64,000 bases of DNA from a virus, in the IMG/VR virus record IMGVR_UViG_3300031933_000117, positions 2,688-66,687 of that record. One strand, 5' to 3'. A program made the translations under genes and the position numbers. Position 1 is the stretch's first letter. The number at the start of each line of letters is the position of its first letter. The notes below the pieces were generated by a model. It made no database searches, had not been told where the DNA came from, and was given only the letters and a program-made list of their open reading frames with translations. Positions 1,956 through 6,158 of the stretch are shown in pieces.

Positions 1956-2165
1956 TTAGTTCTTATAAAGGTCTTCTAGTCTTTCTTTGGTGAGGTCAAC
2001 ATATAAGAGTTCATCACCTTCTTTTGGTGCTTCTGGATGTTGAGGTTTTCTTGGAGTTCTCATTTCCTCATTGATGGATTGGATGTTTCCCCACATCATC
2101 GCAAAGGCACCTCCTGCGATGACTGCGAAGAATGTGAAGTATAGGAGAGGGAGTAGGGGGTTCAT
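1956..2165 (-). CDS. Small membrane protein, DUF2973-like
   Basis: N-terminal TM helix followed by HPEAP motif, as in cyanobacterial/cyanophage DUF2973-type proteins. Confidence 0.55.
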   Translation of the reverse strand: MNPLLPLLYFTFFAVIAGGAFAMMWGNIQSINEEMRTPRKPQHPEAPKEGDELLYVDLTKERLEDLYKN

Positions 2166-2542
2166 GGGGTTTTATGTGTTTGTAGGTATTTAATCATAGT
2201 CTCAAGGATTTGTATATTATCACCAACAAGACCAAGTGCAGTATTGCAGTTGTTACAAAGAACACCACGAACTTTATTTGAAGAATGGCAGTGGTCTATA
2301 CACTTCTTATCCAAAACCTTATCACATATCTGGCAGTTCTCATTTTTCATCAAGTCATTATATTGGTCTTCTGTAAATTTAAACTTTCTACGCATAAACT
2401 CGTGTGGTTTATAATATTGTTTTCTATTTTTTGTTGCACATTTTTTACATCTTGGTTGCAATCCAACATTACCAGAATTAAAAGTTCTTTTATGAAATGC
2501 ACTATCTGGCAATTCAAGTTTACAATCGTTGCACGTTTTCAT
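2162..2542 (-). CDS. Free-standing Endonuclease VII-family homing endonuclease (F-CphI-like) downstream of psbA
   Basis: CQIC...CIDHCH...VRGVLCNNCNTALG EndoVII motif; N-terminal CxxC pairs; own late promoter TATAAATA (2568-2575); position directly 3' of psbA. Confidence 0.8.
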   Translation of the reverse strand: MKTCNDCKLELPDSAFHKRTFNSGNVGLQPRCKKCATKNRKQYYKPHEFMRRKFKFTEDQYNDLMKNENCQICDKVLDKKCIDHCHSSNKVRGVLCNNCNTALGLVGDNIQILETMIKYLQTHKTP

Positions 2543-2576
2543 ATTTGTAATGCGTATTTTCTATACTTATTTATAC

Positions 2577-2602
2577 AAAAAAAAGGAACTCCGAAGAGTT
2601 CC
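2577..2602 (-). terminator. Intrinsic terminator of psbA
   Basis: GGAACUC-UUCG-GAGUUCC hairpin followed by U8 on minus strand. Confidence 0.85.
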
Positions 2603-2612
2603 CCTTATTATA

Positions 2613-5131
2613 TCAACCGATAGAAGGAGCAGTTAGAGCAACCGAAGTTGTTTCTGCTGCTGCCAGATCTAAAGGAAAGTTCGCTTAACCCGTAAATTTA
2701 CCATCCTTACGGAGCAGACTATATCATCAACCTATTTCATTAGGTTGTCGGACGCTAATGGTGTATTACATAGGGCGCTCCCTAAACCACCTAGTCGTTG
2801 AACCTTCCTCAAAAGTTCGTTTGAGGCTTGGCTGCTGATTGCCCTTATATTTTGGAGGGGTTCCAGCAATTCATCCGATTTACATCTATCAATTACTTGA
2901 TAGAGCCACCACTTTCTAATGGGCGTTACGTTCATGCCGTTTTTGTTATCGTAAGAACTCTTTATTTCTTACTTCTTACTGTCGCCAGTAAGACCAGACT
3001 ATCTCTTCATCCGTTCTGGATGCTGGGCATTCGTGGGTAGATTATTGTTGGAACTCACTACCTAGTCGTTAGACCTGCCGAAGAACCTATGTCCTCTTCG
3101 GATTGGTACGGGATTGTCTACTTGAGAGTTTCCCCGTTTAACCCAGTTTCGTCAAGGAATATTCCTATTCCAGGGTGACTACATTTCAGAAATCACTTCC
3201 ATACCAAGTCCAGCACGATTTAAAATGTCAGCCCAAGTAGGAATTACTCGGTTTTGACTATCAATAAGAGACTGGTTAAAATTAAAACCGTTGCACTAGA
3301 TCCATAAGTTTACCATACTTGTGGAGTGGACTATATCTTCATCCCAGTAGGATGTCGGACGCTTATTCCTGTTATTAAGGGAACTATATCCCTCAGGTAG
3401 TCTCTGAACCTTTCTTGAGTGTACTCAAGACTTGGATGCTGATTGCCCTTTTATTTTGGAGGGTTTCCAGCAATTCATCCGATGTTTGCCGTTAAATTGC
3501 TTTAACGGAACCCCAATTGAGGTTAAATGCCATCGTGGATACACCAAGAGCGGTGAACCAGATGCCCACAACGGGCCAGGCAGCCAGGAAGAAGTGTAAC
3601 GAACGGGAGTTATTAAAGGAAGCATATTGGAAAATAAGGCGACCAAAATACCCGTGAGCAGCAACGATGTTGTATGTCTCTTCTTCTTGTCCGAACTTAT
3701 ATCCATAATTCTGTGACTCGGTTTCAGTGGTCTCACGAACTAGTGAAGAAGTCACTAGCGAACCGTGCATAGCACTGAAGAGTGAACCACCGAAGACACC
3801 AGCAACTCCAAGCATATGGAATGGGTGCATAAGGATATTATGTTCTGCCTGGAAGACTAGCATGTAATTAAACGTACCAGAAATACCAAGGGGCATAGCG
3901 TCAGAGAAAGAACCTTGACCGAAAGGATACACAAGGAATACAGCACTCGCAGCAGCAACAGGTGCAGAGTAAGCAACCATAATCCAGGGACGCATACCTA
4001 AACGATAGGAGAGTTCCCATTCACGACCCATGTAGCAATAGATGCCGATAAGGAAGTGAAATACAACAAGTTGAAATGGACCTCCATTATACAACCATTC
4101 GTCAAGACTCGCTGCTTCCCAGATAGGATAGAAGTGAAGTCCGATAGCATTTGAACTTGGAACAACAGCACCAGAGATGATGTTGTTTCCGTACATAAGA
4201 GAACCAGCAACTGGTTCACGAATCCCGTCGCTACATCTAACAAACAACCATATCTTTTGACTTAGGTTGCTTCTGTTGACGAATTTGATTTGCTCGTTTT
4301 GCGTTTTCTACTCTTCCACCGTTTTCTACCCACTCTTTCCAAGTTTGTAGGTAAGAAATAGATTCGGTTATTCTCTCTGCTCTTCTTACTCCCATATAAG
4401 GAAGTATTTTTTGTAGAATGAATAATACCTTTTCTTTTTCTCCGATGTGAAGTGTATAAACTTGTTTTCCTGTTACGGTCTTTCTTGATGGTGAAAAATA
4501 AGATTTATCTAAAAGTTTACTCAACCTTTGGATAATATCTTCATCCACCATAGAAATTTTGATAAAAGGTGCTGGTGGAGTATTAGAAACTTCATAACGG
4601 TCTTTGGAACGATTATCTATTCCAAAGTATCCTTCACCTTCTAATAATCCAGCAATCCAAGCAATATCAGTCTCGGTTATGTTTAACATTTTGTTTTTGC
4701 TTCTACTGTACTATTTATACAGCATTAGCAAGAAAAAGTCAACAGTAGATGTGTGGACTATATCTTCACCCTTCATTTTTATTGAAGGGGCTGGGCACTT
4801 AAACCTGTTATTAAGGGAACTATATCCCTCAGGTAGTCTCTGAACCTTTCTTGAGTGTACTCAAGACTTGGCTGCTGATTGCCTTTCGGTTTCCAGCAAT
4901 TCACCCAGTTTCGTCAATACTCTTACGAGTAAGGGACACCGATTAGTTAATGTCTACGGGAGGCGCTCCAACAAACGCAATAATGAAGCAAGTAGTTGCA
5001 GCGAGCAACGTTGGAATCATAAGAACGCCGAACCAACCAACATAAAGGCGGTTGTTCGTGGAAGTAACCCAGGAACAGAAATCGTTCCAGAGATTATTAG
5101 TATTAGAACGTGTAGCAATTGTAGCAGTCAT
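2613..5131 (-). CDS. psbA: Photosystem II D1 protein, 5 exons: 5131-4950, 4230-3520, 3293-3192, 2937-2919, 2681-2613
   Basis: Exon lengths 182+711+102+19+69=1083 nt = 360 aa + stop. Junctions restore PPVD(AT|C)DGIREP, AFN(CT|C)NGFNFNQ, GMEV(AT|G)HERNAH and H|NFPLDLA. Confidence 0.97.
2682..2918 (-). mobile_element. Group I intron 4 of psbA (237 nt, no ORF)
   Basis: 5' exon ends in U (CCAU pairs IGS GUGG with U-G); P10 GAAAGU pairs exon ACUUUC; core AAUUGCUGGAA, AAUCAGCAG, GGUUCAACGACUA, AUAUAGUCU; terminal G. Confidence 0.93.
2938..3191 (-). mobile_element. Group I intron 3 of psbA (254 nt, no ORF)
   Basis: Exon end GUGAU pairs IGS GUCAC (U-G at splice site); core AACGGGGAA/AAUCCCGU, GGUCUAACGACUA, AAGAGAUAGUCU; terminal G. 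Confidence 0.93.
3294..3519 (-). mobile_element. Group I intron 2 of psbA (226 nt, no ORF)
   Basis: Exon end AACCU pairs IGS GGGUU; P10 UUG/CAA; core AAUUGCUGGAAA, AAUCAGCAU, GGUUCAGAGACUA, AAGAUAUAGUCC; terminal G. Confidence 0.95.
4231..4949 (-). mobile_element. Group I intron 1 of psbA (719 nt) carrying a LAGLIDADG ORF near its 3' end
   Basis: Exon end GACAU pairs IGS GUGUC; core AAUUGCUGGAAA, AAUCAGCAG, GGUUCAGAGACUA, AAGAUAUAGUCC; terminal G at 4231. Confidence 0.95.
4237..4689 (-). CDS. Intron-encoded single-motif LAGLIDADG homing endonuclease
   Basis: [23 protein letters not shown]-type helix; inside intron 1 downstream of the S element; late promoter TATAAATA at 4712-4719. Confidence 0.85.
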
Positions 5132-5154
5132 TTGTTAAAAAGGGGGTAAGTATG

Positions 5155-5217
5155 AGTTCGGGGGACGAACTTATTAGTAACTATATTCCACGACACCCTC
5201 AGTCGTGGATATGAGGG
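5155..5217 (-). ncRNA. Structured psbA 5' leader (candidate PhotoRC-II-like cis element)
   Basis: Interleaved complementary pairs CCCUCA/UGAGGG and UCCACGAC/GUCGUGGA plus hairpin AGUUCG/CGAACU; family assignment not verified. Confidence 0.5.
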
Positions 5218-5297
5218 ATGCTTTACTTCTCTTGATCCCGGTTTGAGAAGACACGGTTCTCAGAATTGTCACATTCCTTAACCCCGTGTATGTATAT

Positions 5298-5405: not shown

Positions 5406-5519
5406 GTGCCAAAATCACCGAATAAAGGTAAGAAAGGTTCTACTGGAGGAAAGCGTCCCAAACAAAATCAGGGAAATGCGGCCGCTAAAAAAGCAAAGAA
5501 TGGCGGCAAGAAGAAGTGA
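5406..5519 (+). CDS. 37-aa Lys/Gly-rich basic microprotein (MPKSPNKGKKG...AKNGGKKK)
   Basis: Read by hand; GTG start; late promoter TATAAATA at 5353-5360; stop abuts next ORF. Confidence 0.55.
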   Translation: MPKSPNKGKKGSTGGKRPKQNQGNAAAKKAKNGGKKK

Positions 5520-5525
5520 GGAATT

Positions 5526-5723
5526 ATGCCACGCGAATTCAACACTCCTCATAGAAAAGATTGGAACGCACCGATACATAACATTCTCAAAGCAATAGAT
5601 AATCATACTCAAGAATACTTTAAAAGTGGCGATACTTGGCATCTACAAAAAGCACAAATACTCCGTGAGTATGTTGCGGAATTAAAAACTTGGATACATA
5701 AAACAGAAAAAGAAAACTTATGA
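5526..5723 (+). CDS. Hypothetical cyanophage protein
   Basis: ORF in a compact plus-strand operon. Confidence 0.6.
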   Translation: MPREFNTPHRKDWNAPIHNILKAIDNHTQEYFKSGDTWHLQKAQILREYVAELKTWIHKTEKENL

Positions 5724-5860
5724 CTGACCCAGTATGGAGCGTAAATATTTTAATCGCACTAGGATTACTTGGTGCTGCCTGGATGATTTACTATATACTC
5801 ACACAAGACGATAGAGAAAATGTACCAATACAAGATCAAAAAGATCAACAGGATCATTGA
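5720..5860 (+). CDS. 46-aa single-TM protein
   Basis: Read by hand: MTDPVWSVNILIALGLLGAAWMIYYILTQDD...; ATGA overlap with upstream stop. Confidence 0.5.
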   Translation: MTDPVWSVNILIALGLLGAAWMIYYILTQDDRENVPIQDQKDQQDH

Positions 5861-6158
5861 TGGTGACACGATAGATGTCGCAATTGATGTAGGTTTTCAT
5901 ATTACAATCAATCAAAGAGTTCGTCTCAAAGGTATTGATGCTGCCGAAACAAGAACCAAAGACCTTACAGAAAAAACAGAAGGTCTCCTGGCAAAAGAGT
6001 GGTTGGAGAAAGAACTTTCCAAACCCGGTGAATGGATTATTGAAACCACCAAGGATGATAAGTATGGAAGAATACTTGGAACCTTATACTTAGTTGGAGA
6101 ACCAGTCACCGTGAATGAGAGAATGATAAATGATGGAATCGCAAGACCTTATATGTAA
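5820..6158 (+). CDS. Staphylococcal nuclease (thermonuclease)-like protein
   Basis: IIDGDTID, VRLKGIDAAE, DKYGRILG motifs. Confidence 0.85.
   Translation: MYQYKIKKINRIIDGDTIDVAIDVGFHITINQRVRLKGIDAAETRTKDLTEKTEGLLAKEWLEKELSKPGEWIIETTKDDKYGRILGTLYLVGEPVTVNERMINDGIARPYM

Follow-up and report, generated by a model that had tools for sequence, protein, structure and literature searches.

A probable mobile group I intron with a single-motif LAGLIDADG endonuclease gene in cyanophage psbA, at the site of a chloroplast intron

The first intron of the psbA gene (intron 1) in a T4-like cyanophage genome fragment is very probably a mobile group I intron, whose loop L9 encodes a homing endonuclease with a single LAGLIDADG motif. 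The gene lies on the minus strand of the 64,000-nucleotide (nt) stretch analyzed here (the window), which covers positions 2,688 to 66,687 of the 70,707-base IMG/VR virus record IMGVR_UViG_3300031933_000117 (completeness estimate, 34%) and whose nearest isolate is S-SRM01, a freshwater T4-like cyanophage (Kyanoviridae). Intron 1 adds a phage representative, fitted with a phage-type expression cassette, to an organellar lineage of intron and endonuclease that is already known. The strongest result of this work concerns the link to organellar elements, which a first interpretation made from the DNA letters alone (the sequence-only reading) had put forward as a possibility: the same intron and a related open reading frame (ORF) occupy the same site in psbA contigs of green-plastid type.

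Intron nucleases of phages have been described as belonging to the GIY-YIG, HNH, PD-(D/E)xK or EDxHD families, LAGLIDADG enzymes being typical of organelles, archaea and some bacteria (PMC3984707). In the literature, of which our coverage was incomplete so that novelty is unproven, we found no description of a LAGLIDADG ORF in a cyanophage psbA intron. The sequence-only reading had called the combination rare in phages, and indeed no close homologue of the ORF is present among 50,697 GenBank phage records (E <= 1e-12). The nearest genes there, detected with tblastn, are free-standing genes of actinobacteriophages with 31-36% identity.

Intron 1 and its encoded protein

The group I intron that the sequence-only reading had placed at this position was borne out on the minus strand (Table 1). 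The Rfam model RF00028 matches its core (4959..4737) with 75.1 bits (gathering score, 50; E 4.4e-18), and an intact D1 protein results from joining the exons. The reading frame of exon 1 ends with ...GAC AU at 4950, the last intron base is G4231 and exon 2 opens with the C at 4230; removal of intron 1 (5' splice site after U) joins the exons in frame. In the P1 helix, GUGUC (4939..4935) pairs with GACAU of exon 1 (4954..4950), the U.G pair at the splice site being U4950.G4939, while UCG (4942..4940) can form P10 with CGA of exon 2 (4230..4228). Since the plastid D1 is one codon shorter at its N-terminus, nt 182 of phage psbA corresponds to nt 179 of the chloroplast gene.

Contigs from four metatranscriptome runs were compared with positions 2550-5250. 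One of them (X17, depth 23) carries the joint 4230->4950, which is the predicted exon ligation. Another one (X15; 748 nt, depth 3.5) runs from within the intron to 4231 and then straight to 4949, and its own ends overlap by 29 nt. This is what assembling a full-length excised intron circle of 719 nt would give, and both intron ends would thereby be confirmed to the base. A third contig (X16, 779 nt) covers 4201-4979 unspliced and reflects either precursor RNA or DNA carry-over. Sequencing depth in these runs cannot rank the ORF against the exons, as exon depth sums all psbA genes in a sample. A further joint, 4232->4749 in contig X18, was considered as a possible relative of intron 1 devoid of both ORF and promoter hairpin and was not used as evidence; its shorter side comprises only 25 letters.

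The ORF lies 3' of the S element and ends 6 nt before the 3' splice site, as had been recognized from the sequence, with AUGUAG leading up to that site. Its placement in loop L9 follows from the strands of P9 and P9x, which flank the ORF and keep pairing through compensatory changes. In pair tables over 19 distinct variants, double changes in P9x convert C-G to U-A in L009, U-A to A-U in L025 and G-C to U-A in L032 (L numbers denote related contigs), while P9 shows C-G to U-A in L014 and several such changes in L027. The P9.2 hairpin between the two 3' strands is compensated as well. The stop codon UAG is formed by the first three bases of the P9 3' strand (UAGAUGU). Because the last ~15 ORF codons are structural RNA, the C-terminus is conserved. 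For the same reason, and since the helices concerned also set the place of the 3' splice site, translation and splicing would interfere with each other, a conflict that has been noted for bacterial introns (PMC3984707). A motif AAGAUAUG(G/A)U, similar to the S element AAGAUAUAGUCC, is also conserved near the intron 3' end (4250-4262, minus strand) in phage and chloroplast copies, L006, L118, L124 and L126 included; it is located beyond the ORF stop in L124 and L126 and, in those copies where translation extends through it, specifies the conserved C-terminal D-M.

The encoded protein contains one LAGLIDADG motif, IAGLLEGEG at residues 12-20, which aligns residue for residue with IAGFLDGDG of I-MsoI and so assigns the putative catalytic residue Glu19 to the position of the catalytic Asp. 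In Pfam, the single sequence scores just over the cut-off of LAGLIDADG_3 (PF14528; 23.0 bits vs 22.5), and the family search suggested with the sequence-only reading is to this extent positive at one Pfam family and negative at another (see below). Profile searches against PDB and fold searches were unambiguous. With a profile of 30 homologues, PDB matches include I-AniI (5.5e-8), I-MsoI (5.5e-6) and a bI3-type mRNA maturase. Residues W11, A13, G14, E17, G18, E19, M47, D49, D51, R102 and R103 are invariant among these 30 aligned homologues. The ratio of nonsynonymous to synonymous substitution rates (dN/dS) is 0.07-0.23 in comparisons with nine phage homologues and, on this sequence criterion, the ORF is under purifying selection.

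The AlphaFold2 model of the protein (mean predicted local distance difference test [pLDDT], 89.0; predicted template modelling score [pTM], 0.78) displays the alpha-beta-beta-alpha-beta-beta-alpha order, with helices at residues 6-19, 50-60 and 85-98 and strands at 20-25, 40-47 and 78-82. Among the Foldseek matches listed, the best 50 consist of LAGLIDADG enzymes only, each with a probability of 1.0, and the homodimeric I-CvuI, I-MsoI and I-CreI come on top. A two-copy model scored 0.79 against 0.00 for the best of three controls, with 100% agreement between runs, a partner pLDDT of at least 79 and an interface made of residues 6-19 (the LAGLIDADG helix), 47-55 and 98-102. Among solved structures, 20 of 30 homodimers and one of 23 monomers attain the 0.79 mark. 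The single-motif homodimer proposed in the sequence-only reading, and the dimer prediction recommended with it, are thus both matched by the models. Since similar dimers have already been solved, the score may reflect structures that the model has learned, and it indicates a likeness to LAGLIDADG dimers and not proof of binding.

These three enzymes, which are encoded by chloroplast 23S rRNA introns, are comparable to the phage protein in size (~150-170 residues) and in having one motif with a terminal acidic residue. They share with it the same fold (probability 1.0, template modelling score 0.5-0.6), a predicted symmetric dimer built on the motif helix and a pseudo-palindromic target. However, sequence identity is only 10-18%, the predicted target of the phage protein is protein-coding instead of rRNA, and its motif has Glu for Asp. 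In addition, the phage protein has a helical C-terminal part, encoded by a stretch that also forms intron helices.

Where exons 1 and 2 meet in an intron-less allele, the sequence TCCCGTAGAC|ATCGACGGGA outranks all other pseudo-palindromes of the spliced psbA (1,063 centers). Eight of its ten half-site pairs are symmetric, and its center (nt 180/181) is 2 nt away from the insertion site at nt 182. It is therefore at the PVDI/DG codons of D1, where the sequence-only reading had expected the target, that the predicted homing site falls. The flanks are nearly invariant among intron-bearing phage alleles, as co-conversion would produce, and the intron-less alleles of S-SRM01 and L035 differ from them at synonymous positions. 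About 290 cyanophage psbA genes in GenBank are uninterrupted at the insertion site and 84-90% identical over 38 nt, which means that targets still exist.

In the homing mechanism that we propose, the LAGLIDADG helix would mediate dimerization, and the dimer would recognize in an intron-less psbA the ~20-base-pair (bp) pseudo-palindrome of the joined exons (P-V-D-I-D-G codons). Cutting across the central 4 bp, by analogy with I-CreI-type geometry, it would cleave the top strand at the insertion site. During mixed infection, repair from the intron-bearing phage would copy the intron together with some flanking exon into the cut allele. The carrier phage would be immune because the intron interrupts the target site, and D1 would still be made because the ribozyme splices itself out.

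Relatives in phages and chloroplasts

A metagenomic protein collection returned 123 matches to the ORF, ~100 of them with 45-96% identity, and 25 loci were found in IMG/VR. In all contexts examined, the gene is located between psbA exons 1 and 2 of cyanomyophage-like contigs, save two exceptions: a set of plastid-type contigs and the contig L035.

The plastid-type contigs (L006, L118, L124 and L126) carry a plastid-type psbA with the N-terminus MTAILERRES and AT-rich exons. Their psbA is interrupted at the same position by an intron whose guide sequence is unchanged and whose P3-P5 and P7 are closely similar; in L006 and L118, nt 179 is the last base of exon 1 (...GACAU). Their intron ORFs are 45-54% identical to the phage ORF. 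Psa genes near the locus (psaA/B) made a cyanobacterial origin of L006 a candidate, which was ruled out by its D1 of 353 residues beginning with MTAILERRES and ending with a green-plastid C-terminus; Pfam and tRNA scans of its neighbors were uninformative.

In the phylogeny against other LAGLIDADG proteins, another check attached to the sequence-only reading, the psbA-associated proteins form one clade of their own (support 93/97) that unites plastid and phage rows. The plastid-context rows all stand on one side of a branch (88/93) of this tree, which is unrooted and so gives no direction of transfer; row P0053 was labelled as phage context by its near relative P0055. Two scans with one genome per prokaryote species returned no cyanobacterial copies; their matches, none above 38% identity, were remote ones from Chloroflexota and Actinomycetota. 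The scans provide no evidence for or against a cyanobacterial intermediate.

The chloroplast counterpart is known from Oedogonium cardiacum, where Oc.psbA.1 is inserted at site 179, belongs to subgroup IA1 and holds in L9 an ORF of 184 codons with one LAGLIDADG motif; positional homologues occur in other green algae (PMC2442088). Judged by this published description, intron 1 is alike in its site, which splits the Ile codon of PPVD-I-DG behind the second base, in its L9 ORF and in the single motif. It differs in its host, a T4-like cyanophage with a psbA of the cyanobacterial 360-residue type. Besides, phage copies differ from plastid site-179 introns by the addition of a late promoter in a hairpin and by P6 and P8, which match those of the phage intron 2.

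Introns 1 and 2 of the window are almost identical over a stretch of ~110 nt spanning P3'-P6-P8 (4760-4905 and 3330-3480, minus strand); L5 and the P1/P2 and P9 regions set them apart. As P6 and P8 of the chloroplast site-179 introns depart from this shared stretch, the sequence comparison suggests that introns inside phage psbA have exchanged sequence with each other.

The second exception, L035 (1826-3480), has an uninterrupted psbA with an altered site, CCTGGAGTAGACATTGATGGT, followed behind the psbA terminator by a free-standing LAGLIDADG gene of 85% identity that keeps the same late promoter TATAAATA. The promoter-plus-gene cassette thus moves on its own. Degraded copies are found too: the ORFs of L120 and L032 have an early stop, and the 3' half is gone in L129. 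In this last contig (3001-3480, 91-95% identity), codon 87 of the ORF (GEKEK) is followed, without a change of frame, by exon 2 (DGIREP), the second ORF half, the P9 3' strands and the 3' splice site being absent, a deletion that would prevent splicing of intron 1; an assembly chimera is possible. L129 has a further intron with an ORF of 223 residues after ...DEWLY. The contig L002, which also has the intron-1 gene, carries between psbA and psbD a second, different single-motif LAGLIDADG gene (5415-5918, 167 residues, MSDIDAAWLAGILEGEG...).

It is a serious possibility, a little short of an even chance in our judgment, that one intron-plus-endonuclease lineage moved horizontally between green-algal chloroplast and cyanomyophage psbA, either directly or via cyanobacteria. 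On the phage side, it would have been refitted with a T4-type late-promoter hairpin and would also travel as a free-standing cassette.

Expression signals and alternative explanations

The sequence-only reading had also proposed a T4 late promoter inside a stem-closed loop. The box stood, and it occupies the apex of a hairpin, but the stem drawn at that time did not: CUACUGU/ACAGUAG can be drawn in the window, whereas 10 of 16 phage variants have ACAGAAG, and a local covarying hairpin takes its place. The sequence NATAAATA is a published cyanomyovirus late promoter (PMC2984593). The window contains 16 copies of TATAAATA, where 6.8 would be expected by chance according to shuffled sequences (none of 100 shuffles attained 16), and 13 of the 16 copies are positioned 16-29 nt ahead of an ORF start. 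None of the 16 close phage upstream variants departs from the exact box, nor do L127 and L035. The hairpin stems covary between phage variants (CUUGC/GCAAG, UCUCAA/UUGAGA, CUCCUUC/GAAGGAG, UUUCAAA/UUUGAGA) and form a perfect stem of 18 bp in L002 (-31.6 kcal/mol). In the more distant L120, a hairpin of unrelated sequence is retained around UCUAAAUA. Both promoter and hairpin are absent from the chloroplast homologues.

We propose that, in the psbA pre-mRNA, the hairpin would form just upstream of the start codon, while late transcripts would start within its 3' arm, hence lack the hairpin and be translatable. By means of this intron-internal late promoter, the phage copies may avoid the conflict between translation and splicing as in the td, nrdB and nrdD (sunY) introns of T4. 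The ORFs of these introns (I-TevI, II and III) reportedly come with a late promoter of their own and with a hairpin close to the site where translation starts, as Gott et al. are said to have described in 1988. The likeness would lie in the use of both elements to separate endonuclease expression from splicing, and the nrdD ORF also lies towards the 3' end of its intron. In contrast to intron 1, the T4 enzymes are GIY-YIG or HNH and not LAGLIDADG, and the T4 hairpin covers the ribosome-binding site, whereas the hairpin of intron 1 holds the promoter and ends ~8 nt before the AUG.

Several observations weigh against the reading of intron 1 as a splicing, mobile element with a switched endonuclease gene. 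The RNA evidence consists of assembled contigs, single ones from single studies: the exon-ligation joint could stem from the intron-less psbA of another organism, and the circle junction is one contig at depth 3.5 in one study. In Pfam, LAGLIDADG_3 is only barely above its cut-off and LAGLIDADG_1 (PF00961) remains below (20.4 bits vs 23.1). Chloroplast alleles show a less pronounced pseudo-palindrome (5 of 10 pairs), so that codon choice may have contributed to the symmetry of the phage site. As for expression, L122, whose ORF is 62% identical, has TATAATAC in a box region that reads UAUAAUAC, and L120 has TCTAAATA, neither being the exact box; the AUG is left uncovered by the hairpin, so that translational masking is plausible, not evident. 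Assembled contigs do not reveal transcript starts, so that promoter use and hairpin function are putative and drawn from analogy.

These last points, to which can be added that the chloroplast homologues express their ORF without any such element, would fit a simpler scheme, in which neither TATAAATA nor the hairpin acts as an expression switch: the psbA pre-mRNA or the excised intron would serve as the template for translation of the ORF, and the hairpin would only belong to the structure of L9. We hold this to be unlikely, although it deserves some weight. Indeed, the box stays exact in the close phage variants while the stems around it change, and it travels with the gene to its free-standing position in L035. 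In addition, its spacing to the ATG matches that of the other late genes of the window, and an identical box stands 25 nt ahead of the ATG of the neighboring endonuclease VII (EndoVII) gene.

The function of the protein itself could also be viewed differently. Maturases and bifunctional proteins exist among the LAGLIDADG proteins of introns, the best PDB sequence match is the bifunctional I-AniI with a bI3-type mRNA maturase also matched, and a bacterial LAGLIDADG maturase has been described (PMC3984707). That the ORF acts mainly as a maturase, i.e. as an RNA-binding cofactor for the folding of intron 1 whose DNA cleavage is lost or secondary, is nevertheless quite improbable given that Glu19 and the basic pair R102/R103 are invariant in 30 of 30 aligned homologues and that the palindrome of the target site fits DNA recognition. 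Moreover, intron 2, whose P3-P8 core is almost the same, has no ORF and does without an encoded protein, and the free-standing copy of L035 adjoins an intron-less psbA, with no cognate intron to help. We see only a slim chance that the ORF is a decaying relic of a past invasion, in an intron that still splices but whose endonuclease has lost its activity and mobility. Decay is common among homing endonuclease genes that have become fixed, and variants with an early stop (L120, L032) or without the 3' half (L129) exist; but the ORF is intact in the window and in most of >100 clusters, its dN/dS is low and its catalytic residues are invariant, the promoter and hairpin have been maintained through compensatory changes, and ~290 uninterrupted cyanophage genes still offer targets. 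A homing endonuclease borne by a mobile intron is thus the explanation that we favor.

The interrupted psbA gene and the meaning of intron 1

In the window, psbA is broken up by four group I introns detected with Rfam, and its joined exons yield a complete D1 of 360 residues of the cyanobacterial type (Table 1). A micro-exon of 19 nt (2937..2919, minus strand; G CAU GAA CGU AAC GCC CAU) separates introns 3 and 4, and the related contig L009 has five Rfam intron matches in psbA. Upstream of the gene, its leader contains a PhotoRC-II RNA motif (RF01717, 44 bits; 5262..5173, minus strand), likewise present in S-SRM01 and related contigs.

Table 1. Coordinates of intron 1, its encoded gene and the surrounding psbA features in the window
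Feature	Position	Strand	Remarks
Group I intron 1	4231..4949	-	719 nt; inserted after nt 182 of phage psbA (site 179 in chloroplast numbering)
Ribozyme core P1-P9	4737..4949	-	Rfam alignment; aligned to chloroplast site-179 introns L006 and L118 and to phage L120 and L127
Internal guide sequence	4935..4942	-	Read from sequence; same in chloroplast and phage homologues
S element GAAGAUAUAGUCC	4767..4755	-	Inside core, upstream of ORF
L9-closing helices, 5' strands	4738..4752	-	P9 ACAUCUA (4752..4746) and P9x CUGUUGAC (4745..4738), directly after S element
L9-closing helices, 3' strands	4233..4280	-	P9x GUCAACAG (4280..4273) and P9 UAGAUGU (4239..4233); overlap last ~15 ORF codons
P9.2 hairpin	AAGCAACC 4272..4265 with GGUUGUUU 4249..4242	-	Between the two 3' strands
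LAGLIDADG homing endonuclease gene (predicted)	4237..4689	-	150 codons + UAG (stop 4239..4237)
T4-type late promoter box TATAAATA (putative)	4712..4719	-	22 nt ahead of ATG
Promoter hairpin	4697..4731	-	Minimum free energy -14.9 kcal/mol, z = -4.3; box AAAUA is the apical loop
Predicted homing site	4950..4961 (left part) + 4230..4223	-	Pseudo-palindrome in spliced sequence
psbA exon 1	4950..5131	-	60 codons + 2 nt, ends ...GACAU; from ORF list and translation
psbA exon 2	3520..4230	-	Starts C GAC GGG AUU
psbA exons	5131..4950, 4230..3520, 3293..3192, 2937..2919, 2681..	-	Joined exons
Group I intron matches in psbA	4959..4737, 3529..3302, 3231..2975, 2937..2690	-	Rfam

Directly downstream of psbA, a free-standing gene (2162-2575, minus strand; 126 residues) contains an EndoVII motif (PF02945 at 5e-17) and its own TATAAATA 25 nt ahead of the ATG. 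It resembles F-CphI of S-PM2, and the same arrangement is found in L127 and S-SRM01. The psbA intron of S-PM2 is ORF-less and relies on the neighboring free-standing EndoVII-family enzyme F-CphI, a situation termed 'collaborative homing' (Zeng et al. 2009; PMC6083498). Like intron 1, it is a cyanomyophage psbA group I intron, with a ribozyme core 78.8% identical over 153 nt, and the window too has an EndoVII-motif gene just downstream of psbA. Unlike it, intron 1 carries its own nuclease, of another family. S-SRM01 and S-CBWM1 offer a further parallel, as cyanomyophages whose psbA introns, like intron 1, contain an ORF for a nuclease (PMC8557907). However, the S-SRM01 ORF, which was examined as a candidate relative and rejected, is an HNH protein according to Pfam, without similarity to the phage LAGLIDADG ORF, and the psbA of S-SRM01 is uninterrupted at site 182.

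To conclude, a LAGLIDADG enzyme inside an intron of a T4-like phage widens the host range of this enzyme family. It is not the oddity of one contig, as it is represented by >100 metagenomic protein clusters, yet by none of the 50,697 GenBank phage records. As a site-for-site homologue of a chloroplast psbA intron, intron 1 provides a testable case for the passage of group I introns among plastids, cyanobacteria and viruses, and its phage-specific promoter hairpin would illustrate how a selfish element adapts to the transcription program of a new host. On the practical side, the family offers a natural set of small homodimeric meganucleases with a defined (predicted) 20-bp target and many sequence variants. 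If the horizontal movement considered above is true, cyanophages would be a reservoir or a vector for the psbA introns that pepper the plastid genomes of green algae.

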